Origin: Methanotrichaceae archaeon
GTDB lineage: Archaea > Halobacteriota > Methanosarcinia > Methanotrichales > Methanotrichaceae
Direction: 5' to 3'
Assembly: GCA_963813075.1 (NCBI GenBank)
Contig: CAWEXU010000005.1
Coordinates: forward strand, 96,001-160,000
Length of the DNA stretch: 64,000 nucleotides
Under the pieces are notes generated by a model that had not been told where the DNA came from, searched no databases, and saw only the letters and a program-made list of their open reading frames with translations. Positions 4,966-51,810 of the stretch are shown piece by piece (positions within the stretch are counted from its first letter, which is position 1; every line of letters begins with the position of its first letter). The position numbers were made by a program, and so were the translations under genes.

Positions 4966-5907
4966 ATGATGGATAAGGAGCTTCTCGCCACCCAGGTGGA
5001 GGAGGTTTTGAGAGAGGCAGGATTCAGTACCTCTGACCGCTGCTATCTCCGTCCCAGGAGCTTCGACCTGGCAGCCAGAAGAGGAGATCAGTTCCTGTTC
5101 CTGAAGATCCTCTCCAATATCGATGGCCTGAATGAGCGCACGGCTCTGGAGATCAGGCGTCTGGCCAAGCACCTCTTAGGCAGCCCTATACTGGTGGGAG
5201 AGAAGACCCGCGACCAGTACCTGGAGAGGGGGGCGGTCTACTTCCGCTATGGCATTCCCACCCTCAGCCTGTTCACTCTGGCAGACTGCCTCTTGGAGGG
5301 GGCATTGCCACTGGTCTATGCGGCGCACGGCGGCCTTTATGTGCGCATCGATGGGGGCAGGATGAGGCAGATCCGGTTGGCTCGAGGCATATCTTTGGGG
5401 GCCCTGGCCACAGATCTAGGCGTCTCCCGCCGGACTATCAGCAAGTACGAGGCAGAGGACATGGACACCTCGGTGGATGTGGCCCTGAAGCTGGAGGAGA
5501 TCTTCAATGAGGAGTTGATCGAGCCGGTCGATCCCTTCCAGAGCGAGGTGGTGGCAGAGGAGAAGGCAGAGGTGAAGGGGCCGGTGACGGACAACATCCT
5601 CCGCCTGCTCCTTGAGATCGGCTTTGAGGTGGTCCCCACCGCCCAGGCGCCCTTCAATGCCATAAGCAGGGAGGGAAACCTGGTGGTCCTCACCGGTGTT
5701 GGCAAGTTCTCCCAGAGCATAGTCAAGAAGGCCCGGCTGATGAGCAGCCTCTCCTCCGTCGCCCGCACCAAGTCGGTGGTGATAGTGGACGGGGAGACCA
5801 AGCTGGAGTGCATCGAGGAGACTGCGCTGATCGAGAAGAGGGAGCTGGAGGACATCGACGAGACGCGGGACTTTGAGGACCTGGTGGCGGAAAAGCAGAG
5901 CAAGTGA
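4966..5907 (+). CDS. Archaeal Cro/C1-type HTH transcriptional regulator (COG1395-like)
   Basis: SFDLAARR, KILSNIDG, central HTH SLGALATDLGVSRRTISKYE, APFNA. Confidence 0.85.
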   Translation: MMDKELLATQVEEVLREAGFSTSDRCYLRPRSFDLAARRGDQFLFLKILSNIDGLNERTALEIRRLAKHLLGSPILVGEKTRDQYLERGAVYFRYGIPTLSLFTLADCLLEGALPLVYAAHGGLYVRIDGGRMRQIRLARGISLGALATDLGVSRRTISKYEAEDMDTSVDVALKLEEIFNEELIEPVDPFQSEVVAEEKAEVKGPVTDNILRLLLEIGFEVVPTAQAPFNAISREGNLVVLTGVGKFSQSIVKKARLMSSLSSVARTKSVVIVDGETKLECIEETALIEKRELEDIDETRDFEDLVAEKQSK

Positions 5908-5914
5908 TTGAGAG

Positions 5915-6125
5915 GTGTTTTCGGTGGGTGCTAAGGCGCTCGGCTCATTGCTGATACTTACAGCGCCTGTTGTATCCGCTACTGGGCAGCAGACTGCTGA
6001 TGAATGGAATGATAAAGGCATAGCTCTCGGATATCAGGGCAAGTATGATGATGCAATAGCGGCTTTTGATAAGGCCATTGAGATTGATCCAAAACATGCA
6101 AATGCCTGGATCATCAAAGGCAGAC
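5915..6125 (+). pseudogene. Truncated secreted TPR protein (5' part)
   Basis: Signal-like N-terminus plus one TPR (WNDKG..GKYDDAIAAFDKAIEIDPKHANAWIIKG), then unrelated sequence. Confidence 0.65.
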
Positions 6126-47034: not shown

Positions 47035-47118
47035 TGTCATGTGGTTGCAGCACTATGCAAAGATCGAGTGAAGATCGTCACAGTCTATTGGCCTGATGAC
47101 GAAACGAAGTGTGGTTGA
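47035..47118 (+). pseudogene. DUF4258-like toxin C-terminal remnant
   Basis: HVVAALCKDRVKIVTVYWPD directly upstream of a YgiT-type gene. Confidence 0.6.
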
Positions 47119-47134
47119 ATTCGAGAAAGAGGAG

Positions 47135-47413
47135 ATGCAAATGAGGTCTGTTGCCCACGATTGCTGCTGCGGAACAGGCAAGATGCATGAGGGCAGGCAT
47201 GATTTCATGGCCAGAGTAGAGGATGAGATCATTGTCATCAAGGATGTCCCGGCCCTGGTCTGCGATACCTGCGGCGAGATCGAATACACTCTGGAAGTAT
47301 CAAGAGAAATCGACCAGATGATGAAGGAATTCTTTGCTGGACGACTGCAAGGCCGGCCCCTGGCGGCGAAGGAGGTAGTATTCAAGCCACAGGGCACGGA
47401 TTCGATTGCGTGA
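47135..47413 (+). CDS. YgiT-type zinc-finger (MqsA-like antitoxin) protein
   Basis: IIVIKDVPALVCDTCGE. Confidence 0.8.
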   Translation: MQMRSVAHDCCCGTGKMHEGRHDFMARVEDEIIVIKDVPALVCDTCGEIEYTLEVSREIDQMMKEFFAGRLQGRPLAAKEVVFKPQGTDSIA

Positions 47414-47454
47414 GCGTCTTCTGCTTAACCAACTACGCACGAGCGAGCAGACCA

Positions 47455-47566
47455 GGCTGCGGCTGTGGGCGTGCTAGTTGAGGTCTGCTCGTGCGGACAA
47501 GGCTGGGGAGGACCCCAAGGGCAAGAGCAAGCAAGTGGAGCCGGGGAGGCCGGCTATCTCTATTGA
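47455..47566 (+). repeat. Diverged copy of the leuS 3' end
   Basis: 19-nt and 18-nt blocks identical to 46254-46272 and 46281-46298; reads DPKGKSKQVEPGRPAISIE. Confidence 0.85.
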
Positions 47567-47752
47567 AAATAATCCTGCAAACCCCGGTTAATCTTTAATC
47601 TGTTTTAAAATTTGGATTATAGACAACTCAATGTTGGATCCCGATATGACATTTGACCTCATTCTAATCATATCTAATAGCAACAATCTGAAGCCCGTTT
47701 GGCTCTTCAGGCTCGAAGCCTTAATCTATTCAAGAGACTAATTATATCTCAA

Positions 47753-48043
47753 ATGCATCTTAACGACCTCCTGAAATCAAGGCGCGATGAGATTCTCCGG
47801 ATCGCTGCCAAGCACGGTGCTCACAACGTACGTGTATTCGGCTCTGTGGCCCGAGGTGAAGCCGACTCTCAAAGTGATATAGATCTGCTTGTGGAATTCA
47901 GACGTGGTACGACTCTGCTGACGCATGCAGATCTAATTCATGAGCTGGAGGAGCTTCTGGGTGTCAAGGTCGATGTGGTGAGCGACCGCGGCTTGCGAGA
48001 GCGTGTCCGGGATCGCGTTCTGAACGAGGCGGTAGCGCTTTGA
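47753..48043 (+). CDS. Minimal nucleotidyltransferase (MNT) antitoxin
   Basis: VFGSVARGE...SDIDLLV, VDVV. Confidence 0.92.
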   Translation: MHLNDLLKSRRDEILRIAAKHGAHNVRVFGSVARGEADSQSDIDLLVEFRRGTTLLTHADLIHELEELLGVKVDVVSDRGLRERVRDRVLNEAVAL

Positions 48044-48096
48044 GAGACGATCTCGCATGGCTTTTGGATATCGAGGAGGCTTTGCTGAAAATTTAA
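48040..48096 (+). pseudogene. Truncated HEPN (DUF86) toxin
   Basis: MRDDLAWLLDIEEALLKI* overlapping the MNT stop. Confidence 0.7.
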
Positions 48097-48460
48097 TTGG
48101 AGACTATTGGATTATGCATCTTTTTCGCTAGCGATTTCCCTGCTGGCCACTCAGGCCTAACCAGTCTCTTTCTTCCTTGCCTGAGCCCCTACCAGGCAAT
48201 CCAGCCCGCCCTGACGACAACGCCGCATCCCCGGCCGGCCCAGACCATAAGCGGCCATGAGAGCAGACCGGGGCACTGGCAGCAATCCGCGGTCAATGGG
48301 CTGCCCGGCGCTGCCGTCAGCGGCCTGCAAGGATCGCAAAAGCTGGAGAACTGCTTTGGATCACAAAAGCCTGCCAGAACGGCCCTGACCCACGGGCTGC
48401 GGCCATGAGAGCAGACAGACTGAGGCGACAGAAGCCCGTGTTTCGACTGTCTTAGAAAGA

Positions 48461-48709
48461 CTAAGCCACCTGATATGTAACTCCTATTGCCCGAAACTCT
48501 CCCGTCTCCTGGCGTTCCAGCTTGGCTCTGATCTGTTCGAATCTCCTCACAACTTCCTCAGAATAAAGCCTCTCTCCGCAGCGAAGGCAAACCTCAGCGC
48601 AAACCTTCACAACGGCAGTATTGACGCCTCCCCGCAAGACCTTCTCAACTTCATTCTCTACCAGATCGCCACCGCAGACCGGGCATTTTTCAAAGGGCAT
48701 GCTACTCAT
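48461..48709 (-). CDS. YgiT-type zinc-finger protein
   Basis: CPVCGG...AEVCLRCGERLYS. Confidence 0.85.
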   Translation of the reverse strand: MSSMPFEKCPVCGGDLVENEVEKVLRGGVNTAVVKVCAEVCLRCGERLYSEEVVRRFEQIRAKLERQETGEFRAIGVTYQVA

Positions 48710-48812
48710 CTCGTCGAACTTCAGCCGGTCATCATTGGCTTCTTCATGAGGCATGATCGTTTATTCTGACATGATCTATTTGAATGGCTTCTACTATGTC
48801 GGCTATCTTCAC
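48710..48812 (-). pseudogene. DUF4258-like toxin N-terminal remnant
   Basis: MKIADIVEAIQ..HVRINDHA/EEANDDRLKFDE joined directly to the YgiT gene. Confidence 0.6.
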
Positions 48813-49140
48813 CCGGCCACTTCTAACCACAAATTAATAAATTCCTATTATGATTATTAAAGTTTATGTCAGCTAGGTTTGGGGTTCTACACTGCTCTTT
48901 CCGCATTACCGATATCACTGGGACCCGGGACTGCCTGAATGGCCGAGCCGGTATTGGCATCCATGCACTTATCCGCTGCAGCTTTGCATTTCTACCGCCT
49001 CAATCAATAGCCTGCACGGAGTGGGACGCCCACCCGCGAGAGCGCGCGTGCACGTGCACGGGGGCCCGCCCGGGCGGAAGGCCCGAGAGCGAGTGCAAAG
49101 ATGCGAAAGGCTTTATCTGATCGCCGAGGATATTATTGAG

Positions 49141-49388
49141 GTGTTCGCAGAATACATCCAGGCAGCAAGGGATCTGGCCACCTACGAGATCATCGATGAC
49201 CTTGAACCCTTTTATGGCCAAGCTTCAGGGCCTTTGGGCAACCGGCAAGACCCTGGAGGAATGCCCAAGGGAGCTCGCAAGAAGTCATCGAGGGCTGGAT
49301 TGCCTTGAAGCTGAGACTTGGCCATCCCATACCCGCCATCATCGGGCTTTCTATCAATGCATCAGCGGAGCTGTTGTCCATTGTCGAA
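49141..49388 (+). pseudogene. hicB: Frameshifted hicB copy
   Basis: Near-duplicate of 50399..50656 with indels; no hicA behind it. Confidence 0.8.
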
Positions 49389-49414
49389 AATGGCCGGGTA
49401 AATGGATTCTTGCC

Positions 49415-49630
49415 TTATATGCTCACTTCTAGGGAGGCCGCAGTTGTAGTCGGCTCGGGAATGGTTAGAGACTGAGCTTTTAGCCCTTCCAGATGAAACT
49501 CAATTGCCTCTTTCATCAGCTCTAAAGTCTCCTTTCTCGTTGCCCCAGTGGCTATGACGCCTGGCAAATCAGGACAATATGCAGCGTAATTGCTCTTGGC
49601 CTTTTCAATGATGATCAGATACTCGGTCAT
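49415..49630 (-). CDS. hicB: HicB-family antitoxin
   Basis: YAAYCPDLPGVIATGAT..E....KEAIEFHLEG. Confidence 0.9.
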   Translation of the reverse strand: MTEYLIIIEKAKSNYAAYCPDLPGVIATGATRKETLELMKEAIEFHLEGLKAQSLTIPEPTTTAASLEVSI

Positions 49631-49639
49631 CTTTCCCCC

Positions 49640-49720
49640 CTCTCCTTAAAGCGCTATGCTTTAATATGCTATTTATGGTGCCCTTGATCGATTTCCTTGA
49701 ATTCTACACAGGGTGACGAT
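49640..49720 (-). pseudogene. HicA C-terminal remnant
   Basis: KGTINSILKHSAL upstream of hicB. Confidence 0.5.
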
Positions 49721-49738
49721 GCCTAGCGCATGCCTGGC

Positions 49739-49987
49739 TTATAATCTTTCAAGCAACTCCATTAATGAATCCTTTGAAATCACATTGCGAATGGAAATAT
49801 CGGATAAAATATCGTTTAGGGTGCCCTTCGCAATCTCATCGTGCATCGGGACTGTGATATTATGGTCCCCTGCAGGGGTTTTCTTCCTCAGCCTGACGTG
49901 ACTTCCCCTTTGACGGATCGTTTCATACCCCAACTTCCCCAGCACACGGATAAGCTGTTCTCCGCTAACAACCGGAAGCTTTCGCAA
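49739..49987 (-). CDS. hicA: HicA-family toxin
   Basis: LPVVSG..LIRVL..LGY...RQRGSH, VPMH.EI.KGTL..IL. Confidence 0.9.
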   Translation of the reverse strand: MRKLPVVSGEQLIRVLGKLGYETIRQRGSHVRLRKKTPAGDHNITVPMHDEIAKGTLNDILSDISIRNVISKDSLMELLERL

Positions 49988-50189
49988 CAGGATGCACCTC
50001 GAACTCAGAAATTGATAGGACCCGGATCTCCTCGCCTGCCTCCAGGACATCTTCAAAATGCAGACTGATTGCCTCTTTTACATTGTCCATCAGCTCATCC
50101 AGGCTCTTGCCTTGGGTAAATATGCTGATGCCTATTCCACGAGCACACCAATTCTCTCCGTCAAAATACACTTCAAATTTCACAAGCAT
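49965..50189 (-). CDS. hicB: HicB-like antitoxin
   Basis: IFTQGKSLDELMDNVKEAISLHF; overlaps hicA. Confidence 0.8.
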   Translation of the reverse strand: MLVKFEVYFDGENWCARGIGISIFTQGKSLDELMDNVKEAISLHFEDVLEAGEEIRVLSISEFEVHPVAKASGC

Positions 50190-50398
50190 CAGATCACCGC
50201 TTTTTATAGTGATTATCCGCTTTATATTTCTAGATTCCCTCCGGGCATAGGTTAGCGCCCAAATGCGGACCAGCACAAATGTCAGTCGCCCACCCGCAAG
50301 CGCGCGTGCACGTGCACGGGGTCCGGACTGGCCCTCGGTCCAAGAGCAAATGAATAAGATGCGAAAGGCTTTATCTGATCGCTGAGGATATTATTGCG

Positions 50399-50656
50399 AT
50401 GTTCGCAGAATACATCCAGGCAGCAATGGACCAGGCCACCTACGAGATCATCGATGACCCTGAGCCCTTTTATGGCGAGGTTCCCGAGCTGCAAGGCGTA
50501 TGGGCCACTGGCAAAACCCTGGAAGAATGCCGCAGGGAGCTGCAAGAAGTCATCGAGGGCTGGATTGCCTTGAAGCTGAGATTTGGTCATCCCATACCCG
50601 TCATCGGCGGGCATTCGATCAATGCATCAGCGGAGCCGGTATCCATTGTCGAATAA
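50399..50656 (+). CDS. hicB: HicB-family antitoxin
   Basis: FYGEVPELQGVWATGKTLEECR.EL.EVIEGW. Confidence 0.9.
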   Translation: MFAEYIQAAMDQATYEIIDDPEPFYGEVPELQGVWATGKTLEECRRELQEVIEGWIALKLRFGHPIPVIGGHSINASAEPVSIVE

Positions 50657-50867
50657 GCTTTTGCCGGTCTCAAGAAGAGAGCTAATCCGGCGGTTGGGCA
50701 AATTGGGATTCGTGGGTCCTTTTCCTGGTGCTGGTCACGAGTATATGTCAAGGGGCCTTTTAGAGGTACACATTCCGAATCCTCATGGAAGCGATATCAG
50801 TACTGCTCTCCTACAAAAGATCCTGAAGAGAGCTGGAATAAGCAGAGAGGAATGGTTTGATAGCTGA
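50646..50867 (+). CDS. hicA: HicA-family toxin
   Basis: PVSRRELIRRL..LGF.GP..G..H, IPNPHG.DI...LL..IL..AGISREEW. Confidence 0.88.
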   Translation: MSNKLLPVSRRELIRRLGKLGFVGPFPGAGHEYMSRGLLEVHIPNPHGSDISTALLQKILKRAGISREEWFDS

Positions 50868-50896
50868 GCGCTTCTCAGATTCAAAAAGAGGATTGC

Positions 50897-51124
50897 ATGA
50901 GATGCGTAATCTGCAGGAAAGCAACTACAAAGCCAGGCACAACCACAATCACATTAGAGCGTGGCTGCCTGACCATGGTGGTGAAATGTGTGCCTGCTTT
51001 AGTCTGTCCCAATTGCGGTGAAGCATATCTCGATGAGGACGTCACTGCTAAATTATATACTCAAAGATGCACAAGAGCGAGCAAATGCTGGCGCTCAAGT
51101 TGAGATTCGACAGTACGTAGCGGC
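50897..51124 (+). pseudogene. YgiT/MqsA-type zinc-finger gene, frameshifted near 51056, with its last codon interrupted by an IS-like element
   Basis: CVIC..VPALVCPNCGE; alternative frame LKDAQERANAGAQVEIRQYVAA. Confidence 0.8.
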
Positions 51125-51511
51125 GTCAACTACCGCGTCCTGAAGGGCGTGGCTTGCCTCTACGCAAAAAGTCGCGAGGCGCAAGGGTGGCTGACTCTTC
51201 ATGCTGACTACACTGTGGCACGATAATGTTGTGCTGGCACCCCAGGCACGGGAAGAGGCTTCATCTGTCAGCAATCCACCAGATTCCTTGCGGAATCTCG
51301 TGCTTCCGATGCCGTGTCTGTTCGATTTGCTGGTACGAGTCAGTTAAGCCGTGTGTCTGTTCCTCGTCAAAACGAGGGGAAGTGCCCAACCATATCGAAT
51401 GGTCTGACTCTAGCAATAGACAACAGGAGACAGATTTGTGAGCATAAATAACTTACGGGAGTCGCCCAATTAATCCCCACCCTGAAGGATGGGGACTCCT
51501 TGGGCAACAAG
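51125..51511 (+). mobile_element. Non-autonomous IS200/IS605-family element with IscB/HEARO-type ends and structured RNA interior
   Basis: Left end GTCAACTACCGCGTCCTGAAGGGCGTGGCTTG; right end CAATTAATCCCCACCCTGAAGGATGGGGACTCCTTG; no target duplication; removal restores GTA GCG GC|T TGA. Confidence 0.85.
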
Positions 51512-51810
51512 TTGAGATATTCCTGACGTCAGTGGCTGCCGCATGTAGACCGCGATCAGTCGGAATACTCCCATACGACCCACCGGGATTGCCCCGCATG
51601 AAGGTGCACTTCCGGAGCCAGAGCGATGGCCCGCATGGATGTGAAGCTTCCTCATGCGAGGGCAAAAACCGCGCTTCGCCCTCTTTTCCGATTCCAGAGC
51701 GCTTTGCGAGAAAAAAATCGATTTCTGCAATCGAAAAAGCTTAAGAGCGATTAGAGCGGAATATTGATCATGATAAATAATGCAAAATCCGTTCTAAATG
51801 GAGTTCCGCC

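Follow-up and report, generated by a model that had tools for sequence, protein, structure and literature searches.

What kind of element interrupts the last codon of a small zinc-finger gene, and which RNA, on which strand, does it carry? The question is raised by positions 51125-51511 of the window, the 64,000-nucleotide stretch of Methanotrichaceae DNA analyzed here, where 387 bp (confirmed by sequence check) contain extensive base pairing and no protein gene. A preliminary description had read the insertion as an IscB-type IS200/IS605 element carrying a standalone guide-scaffold RNA on the plus strand.

A mobile element at the end of a ygiT-like gene

The host gene (50897-51124, plus strand) is of the YgiT/MqsA zinc-finger type, matching Pfam MqsA_antitoxin with an E value of 6e-5, below the cut-off, and is interrupted at its last codon. 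Its homologs were intact, with 75 amino acids, in all 14 loci fetched, none of which carried the element at this position. Relative to these homologs, a 4-bp insertion near 51053-51056 shifts the frame of the window's gene; this insertion could be either real or an assembly error. Because it lies upstream and shifts the frame regardless, excising the element restores only the end of the gene, so that the proposed rejoining to VAA-stop held for the 3' end and the gene as a whole stays frameshifted. The window contains a cluster of small toxin-antitoxin-like genes with repeated YgiT-like zinc fingers at 47096-51124, with HicB/UPF0150 at 50399-50656 and HicA at 50583-50867.

Comparison of copies indicates that the element is real and mobile. 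A second copy on another contig of the same genome (G000:C6:63104-63491) showed 98.5% identity, unrelated flanks and two identical ends, beginning with GTCAAC and followed directly by TTGA after its other end. An empty allele was found in genome G044 (locus L185, gene 91% identical), reading ...GTAGCGGC|TTGAT, joined at GC|TTGA and encoding an intact 75-aa protein that ends VAA-stop. The exact boundaries and the lack of a target duplication, both proposed from the window alone, were confirmed by this pair of loci. The CC-TGAA-GG hairpins reported at both ends were also present, with CCTGAAGG cores at 51139 and 51481, one per end. The subterminal hairpin at 51471-51496 (no strand assigned) recurs in tnpB and isrB-like elements and is a putative TnpA binding site. 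With ends common to the tnpB elements of its genome, the insertion is classified as a non-autonomous IS200/IS605 element (51125-51511, minus strand), with its left end at 51511 and its right end at 51125 in the TnpA/TnpB orientation. The window's genome has at least 5 strong Y1 tnpA loci and 15 tnpB-like loci.

Insertion sites were analyzed in pooled metagenome and genome loci, which gave 48 distinct right-end flanks (two mis-anchored). At the other end, the motif was TTGAA in 29 of the 34 sites with a called left end (14 of 48 uncalled). The target motif (TAM) 5' of the left end (51512-51516, minus strand) is accordingly TTCAA in the family (TTGAA on the plus strand) and CTCAA here; the TTGA of the flank first given as TTGA(G) was retained, and the window's TTGAG is a variant of the consensus. 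Thus, a fixed target motif on one side, a variable flank on the other and no target duplication characterize the insertions, which showed no common gene type and no clear orientation.

Strand of the RNA

The plus strand of the element, on which the RNA had been placed, folded at z = -2.3, which is modest by itself, and comparison of homologs puts the RNA most likely on the minus strand. Read on that strand, a hairpin with a GYAA (GNRA) loop and a variable stem occurred in 24 of 24 aligned homologs. Among the 16 rows of subfamily B, G-U outnumbered A-C by 75 to 6 cells (22 versus 6 pairs), the second loop contained GAAA in all rows, four invariant G/A positions fitted a kink-turn (G.A/A.G), and the minus strand was the more stable in 15. 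In the 17 rows of the second element type (type 2, below), G-U was found in 9 cells and A-C in 0, with the GYAA loop in 14. The signal was weak in the window's own subfamily, with 23 G-U versus 14 A-C cells (11 versus 9 pairs) and the minus strand folding better in only 3 of 10 rows.

A candidate archaeal promoter or operator was located at 51434-51451 on the minus strand, an AT-rich near-palindrome with a TTTA(T/C) box 26-30 nt before the first helix. Of 29 homologs, 18 had TTTAT 26 or 30 nt before this helix, 4 had TTTAC there (by eye) and 1 had TTATAT; in all, 23 carried a box of some form at 26-30 nt. Its near-palindromic sequence and its departure from the TTTAWATA consensus count against the box. 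A bacterial promoter scan, with a model not suited to archaea, returned 0 sites. On the plus strand, the AGGAG at 51425 and the GTG at 51438 opening 11 codons were found as described; ribosome-binding site and start codon were kept in only 16 of 29 homologs.

Among the 24 rows listed for RNA runs, 21 contained part of the stretch and 13 were on record as RNA. RNA contigs from 4 runs, mostly of relatives' copies, covered the interior of the element (unstranded, no DNA control). None of these unstranded contigs extended over 51478-51511, those of two studies ended near 51405-51409, one ran unspliced across 51016-51458, and none joined 51124 to 51512.

The end itself does not tell the strand, because it is common to tnpB elements, with their gene on the opposite strand, and to isrB-like elements. 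In the tnpB elements of this genome, GTCAACTACC forms the right end, towards which the gene runs on the opposite strand; elsewhere in the family, isrB-like elements of other genomes begin with it. As set out in the consulted part of PMC10055086, IscB RNAs start at the right end and need transcription from outside, and TnpB RNAs are transcribed from inside. The GTCAAC end alone is therefore insufficient to assign the element to IscB or TnpB.

Structure and covariation of the predicted RNA

Covariation, the strand marks and a covariance model, which matched both genomic copies on the minus strand, together predict a structured RNA scaffold of about 300 nt (51125-51425, minus strand) with its 5' end probably at about 51422-51430. 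Its 5' domain (51315-51422) would consist of the nested stems 51418-51422/51315-51319, 51412-51416/51327-51331 and 51404-51410/51337-51343 with two hairpins; it carries the conserved motifs GG(U/C)WGGGCAC (51382-51391) and RGCUU (51346-51351), and the kink-turn-like motif in subfamily B only. The middle domain (51245-51313) is formed by the helix 51303-51313/51245-51255 around the GYAA-capped hairpin 51281-51298 and UGAC 51267-51270, and this helix changed on both sides in 6 of 11 pairs in subfamily B and 3 of 10 in subfamily A. A TnpB-type stem 1 (51185-51242) pairs GGGUG 51238-51242 with CACCC 51185-51189 and has an insert in its loop of about 41 nt, in which lie the hairpin 51217-51235 and GUCA 51205-51208, able to pair with UGAC 51267-51270. 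The TnpB-type 3' core (51125-51195) comprises a pseudoknot between GUCAGC 51190-51195 and the terminal GUUGAC 51125-51130, a hairpin at 51156-51180 and the right-end hairpin at 51133-51152; both hairpins covary, and the terminal pseudoknot pairs showed one-sided changes only.

In subfamily B, 97.1% of cells paired under the minus-strand model and 30 of 79 pairs had changed on both sides, compared with 87.8% and 18 in shuffles, of which 0 of 500 reached the model, and 36-44% pairing in slid controls. In the window's subfamily, the model paired 96.3% of cells, with two-sided change in 11 of 62 pairs. These controls overstate the support, because the models were drawn from the same sequences and relatives share changes. 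The helix set of the preliminary description, scored on the same rows, reached 81.8% pairing and 4 two-sided changes in 48 pairs (plus-strand wobbles not credited). Its general expectation of a conserved structured RNA was upheld, and its individual helices fared unequally.

All of these helices exist in the window's sequence: 51125-51134/51186-51195 pairs at 9 of 10 positions, and the CTCTTC, TGCTGAC, CAGGCACGG and TTCGAT helices pair fully when G-T is counted. GAGTCAG/CTGACTC and TTGCTGG/CTAGCAA are likewise both present, although they share base 51410 and cannot both extend over 7 bp. Across homologs, GAGTCAG, TTGCT, TGAC/GTCA and the end stems survived, and three crossing helices were poorly supported. 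With plus-strand wobbles allowed, the CAGGCACGG/CCGTGTCTG helix was kept in 70 of 90 cells in 10 close homologs and gives way to the covarying helix 51245-51255/51303-51313; TTCGAT/ATCGAA was kept in 39 of 52 and gives way to a local hairpin. All 50 cells of CTCTTC/GAAGAG in the 10 close homologs could pair, but none of its pairs had changed on both sides, and it is in competition with a covarying helix.

The crossing helices UGAC/GUCA and RGCUU/GANNCY were invariant or imperfect, with no two-sided change, and several invariant motifs had been required by the metagenome search pattern. The term "multiply pseudoknotted" is therefore only plausible for the modeled fold, because the remaining crossing helices are invariant and some of their bases were demanded by the pattern. 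A GGCAC/GUGCC pseudoknot was rejected, as it did not covary, competed with stem 1 and was lost in loci L017 and L035. Likenesses to RNase P CR-V, SAM-I, HDV and group I RNAs, judged by eye against their consensuses, were discarded with no Rfam match. The single-stranded linkers were conserved, also in matches obtained without the pattern (L126 and L207). When the upstream ~180 nt were searched as a possible tnpB or isrB coding remnant, the best tblastn E value was 0.61 (47 RNAs against 8 proteins; control 4e-37).

Kinship with TnpB guide RNAs

The tnpB elements of this genome have a right-end RNA whose stem, pseudoknot and hairpins recur in the last ~118 nt of the minus-strand RNA. The order in the tnpB1 elements is GGCGG-4 nt-GUCAGC-CCGCC-hairpin-hairpin-GUUGAC, and in the element GGGUG-41 nt-GUCAGC-CACCC-hairpin-hairpin-GUUGAC, the 3' core being near-identical in order and sequence. 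The same stem-1-plus-pseudoknot plan is given for the ISDra2 RNA in the excerpted PMC10097598. Counted from the end, the 5' strand of stem 1 comes at about 115 nt, past the terminal hairpin. Within type 1, the type of the window's element, stem 1 does not vary; taking type 1, type 2 and the tnpB loci together, it occurs in seven sequence versions, all of them complementary. In tnpB1 it was compensated as GGUGG/CCACC in 3 of 15 distinct rows, with GGUGG/CCGCC in 2 more; in type 2 it read GGUCG/CGGCC, GGCCG/CGGCC, GGCUG/CAGCC or GGUCG/CGACC with 39-48 nt between the strands, pairing 5 of 5 in all 16 interpretable rows (one further row mis-anchored). The loop insert measured 39-48 nt, versus 4 nt in tnpB1 loci, and it could block TnpB. 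The scaffold also differs from a compact scaffold beside a tnpB gene in its length of about 300 nt, with no tnpB gene overlapping or preceding it.

By analogy with TnpB omega RNA, as described in the available parts of PMC10097598 and PMC10055086, the predicted guide is the flank after the right end (51105-51124, minus strand; putative length), antisense to the last codons of the ygiT-like gene. Its first 12 nt are unique in the genome. Both the guide junction and the target motif of the element match tnpB1 exactly. The left end of the tnpB1 clade was TTCAA|CT in 11 of 15 distinct rows (3 uncalled, 1 other), and tnpB1 is intact in three copies in the window's genome, with the TTCAA target and right end of the element; a tnpB1 gene lies at G000:C13:111861-113045. 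Close tnpB1 genes were found in 5 of 13 genomes carrying the RNA versus 7 of 92 others (P = 0.006; genomes not independent); the remaining 8 of 13 carriers had none at E ≤ 1e-90, in incomplete assemblies and with tnpB1 only counted.

Distribution and variants

The interior of the element was detected in 13 of 105 family genomes by DNA search and in 13 of 105 by covariance model; counts over 104 family genomes were 11 by DNA search and 12 by model R1. Outside the family, the DNA search found it in 0 of 287 other genomes of the class, and model R1 under strict filters in 0 of 150 genomes drawn across the phylum. A pattern search of the whole GTDB gave 5 loci, of which L257 was read and is type 1. 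Among the named records of RNA loci, 4 of 5 were Methanothrix and Methanotrichaceae, and one was a short contig labelled Syntrophaceae. L257 is a type-1 element on a 2.3-kb contig with that label, which may reflect mis-binning or transfer to a bacterium. The metagenome pattern had 83 matches, 80 of which were fetched; 5 were dropped as chance pattern matches and 75 family loci were kept.

Element length was 270-449 bp in 39 of 53 sites with a called left end (14 uncalled), and some copies had large deletions. Longer versions with an ORF for IscB, IsrB or another nuclease were not seen: no such gene lay inside the element among the family loci listed (of 75) or in 2 matches from a viral collection. 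Two loci measured 509 bp, each with a divergent 42-aa DUF7557 ORF. In this type-1 variant (L035:2075-2203 and L105), the ORF is placed behind a two-way TATA-like region, and its small protein may regulate the RNA. In the two viral-collection matches (L262 and L263), the AT-rich palindrome of a type-1 element is interrupted by another IS605-type element, about 0.93 kb long and lacking a long ORF in its own orientation, and the left end of the type-1 element resumes exactly after it.

The type-2 element, of about 520 bp, is present in the window's genome in three copies (L161, L177 and L182; C31:64340-64871, C4:82696 onward and C30:362653 onward in G000), and matches to it occurred in 16 of 105 family genomes. 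It has a TTTAT left-end target compared with TTCAA in type 1, the same right end, a divergent 46-aa DUF7557 ORF and a structured RNA of about 310 nt on the same plan. The interiors of the two types gave no BLAST match to each other; common to both are hairpin-GGWGGGCAC-hairpin, a GCAYGA-GYAA hairpin and the insert in stem 1. A natural hybrid, the gene-less element L022 (G050:C27, match 5831-5915), combines the type-1 5' domain with the tnpB1 right-end RNA. Rfam searches of the element region and of 5 loci of both types gave nothing near any cut-off.

Proposed mechanism and alternative explanations

On balance, and with confidence a little above even, these sequence comparisons point to a non-autonomous, PATE-like element of the IS605 family that expresses its own enlarged TnpB-type guide RNA. 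A Y1 TnpA from elsewhere would move it by peel-and-paste, inserting it 3' of (T)TCAA with no target duplication. Transcription from the TATA-like box in the left end would yield the ~300-nt RNA, crossing the right end and continuing into the flank, and the last ~118 nt, the part for which the structure is supported, would fold as the TnpB core with stem 1, terminal pseudoknot and two hairpins. This core may load TnpB in trans, most likely from the tnpB1 clade with its TTCAA target, and with the flank as guide, the complex would cut the element-free allele (TCAA plus guide). Repair from an element-bearing copy of the chromosome would then keep or spread the element. Cutting of the empty allele followed by repair that restores the element is known for other IS605 elements. 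As the least supported step, the extra ~180 nt might fold compactly and so keep the RNA from being lost where no tnpB message surrounds it. Counting against the TnpB-guide model is that a plain guide needs no 180 extra conserved nucleotides.

With no protein gene as a constraint, selection has preserved these ~180 nt, whose structure covaries and which surround a TnpB-type core, in both of the divergent types. Should TnpB use the RNA, the loop of stem 1 would be a place where its scaffold accepts large inserts, and the element would exemplify the expression and protection of a standalone guide in archaea. A nuclease with the same target is encoded in the same genome, which makes a direct test possible.

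The extra domains might instead have a function of their own, as a ribozyme or as the scaffold of an unrecognised effector, and be attached to the TnpB guide core in the way that IStrons join a group I intron to IS605, with the element as vehicle. That two types without a BLAST match between interiors follow one plan, that the linkers are conserved and that neither a coding remnant nor an Rfam family was recognised all speak for this explanation; yet no known catalytic core was recognised, the only co-located protein is the occasional divergent 42-48-aa DUF7557 ORF, copies with large deletions occur, and a single archaeal family carries the RNA among those searched. We consider it unlikely, while taking it seriously. 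Equally tentative is its general form, an undescribed class of ~300-340-nt archaeal transposon RNAs, so far of two types, in which a TnpB guide core is joined to a tertiary fold with its own activity (ribozyme, or scaffold for another effector at a programmable 3' guide). Such activity would make the fold a new class of large RNA, and the element an RNA-only mobile unit with its own promoter that acquires a guide anew whenever it inserts.

It is improbable that the RNA acts as a decoy or regulator, one that binds TnpB or RNA-binding proteins of the host but guides no cleavage, or one that serves mainly as antisense to neighboring genes. The insert within the TnpB core, the candidate promoter of its own and the antisense orientation that read-through would have to ygiT are compatible with such a role, but the exact match of guide junction and target motif to tnpB1 and the scatter of insertion sites over gene types and orientations argue against it.

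The original model of a standalone IscB/IsrB omega RNA on the plus strand, in which read-through from upstream genes supplies the guide at the 5' end, is now slightly less probable still. In the family, IsrB-like elements have the ends of this element in the plus orientation, and IsrB omega RNAs are long and doubly pseudoknotted, some with a TTGA TAM, as reported in the consulted portion of PMC9581776. The nearest long ORF at the right end was co-oriented with the plus strand at 21 sites versus 12, a weak lean (P = 0.16; 7 without ORF, 8 too short). Against these stand the minus-strand marks and the lack of an ORF-bearing form. The Rfam HEARO model (RF02033) scored 18.4 bits on the element (cut-off 83), from the shared end alone, bearing out the earlier remark that the interior is not HEARO, compared with 43.8-47.4 bits over the full model length for four of the six isrB-like loci tested in the family (one 20.9, one no match); these loci and the element have only their ends in common. 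No RRXRR gene was found in the 13 carrier genomes, and 7 of 105 family genomes were positive (P = 0.59; genomes incomplete), so that absence in carriers alone is not significant, because so few genomes have the gene. RRXRR genes were present in G050, which holds the hybrid L022, and in three type-2 carriers. At loci L217, L224, L226 and L220 (G007 and G006), IsrB-sized RRXRR genes (366-368 aa where complete) accompany a HEARO-like RNA of about 200 nt with ends as in the element.

An ORF-less archaeal IStron, a group I intron with IS605 ends self-splicing from host transcripts, is hardly credible: the minus-strand order helix/UGAC/helix partner/hairpin/YAGUC resembles a P3-P7-P8 pseudoknot and ORF-less IStrons exist (PMC4227781, in part), but none was found in archaea in that part of the paper, Rfam gave no group I match at E ≤ 10, the left flank ends in A rather than U and the element in C rather than G, and P6 and a G-C pair after the bulge are absent (by eye).

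Comparison with known systems

IStrons, as far as PMC4227781 was available, likewise carry a large structured RNA within IS605 ends, read from left end to right end; the element differs from them in its archaeal host and in having neither a group I core nor the splice-site bases. With the omega RNA of IscB/IsrB (HEARO RF02033; PMC9581776, consulted in part) it shares the transposon end, a length near that of IsrB RNA, several crossing helices and TTGA, whereas its RNA lies on the opposite strand, with the guide on the other side and no protein after it. The DtIsrB RNA printed in PMC9581776 showed no likeness to the element by eye.

The omega RNA (reRNA) of TnpB, represented by ISDra2 in the available text of PMC10097598 and by the tnpB1 RNA, is alike in its 3' guide, the pseudoknot in the stem-1 loop, the two hairpins and the TAM 5' of the left end. 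The ISDra2 scaffold in the same text measures 116 nt and overlaps the tnpB gene, as against about 300 nt here, and the tnpB1 RNA has 4 nt where the element RNA has about 41.

A description of the ~300-nt RNA was not found in the literature searched, in sources seen in part; the comparison with omega-RNA models covered Rfam. The consulted parts of PMC12558985 contained nothing on standalone RNAs or methanogen RNAs, and those of PMC10691335 only restate standalone omega RNAs. Closest are the PATE-like, ORF-less IS200/IS605 elements of Geobacillus treated in the excerpts of PMC10055086, which also have no protein gene, TnpA-type ends, a fixed target motif, no duplication and a right-end RNA for use by TnpB in trans. 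That use in trans of omega RNAs from gene-less elements is proposed there, and in the same excerpts these RNAs are not described as enlarged. In comparison to them, the Methanotrichaceae element has a predicted RNA of about 300 nt that is no coding remnant and includes two added covarying domains and a stem-1 insert; it also has a TATA-like box of archaeal kind, and its two types differ in their left ends (TTCAA and TTTAT). Gene-less elements with omega RNAs are thus already known, and what appears new is the ~300-nt non-coding expansion, in two related types in Methanotrichaceae, with no match in Rfam.
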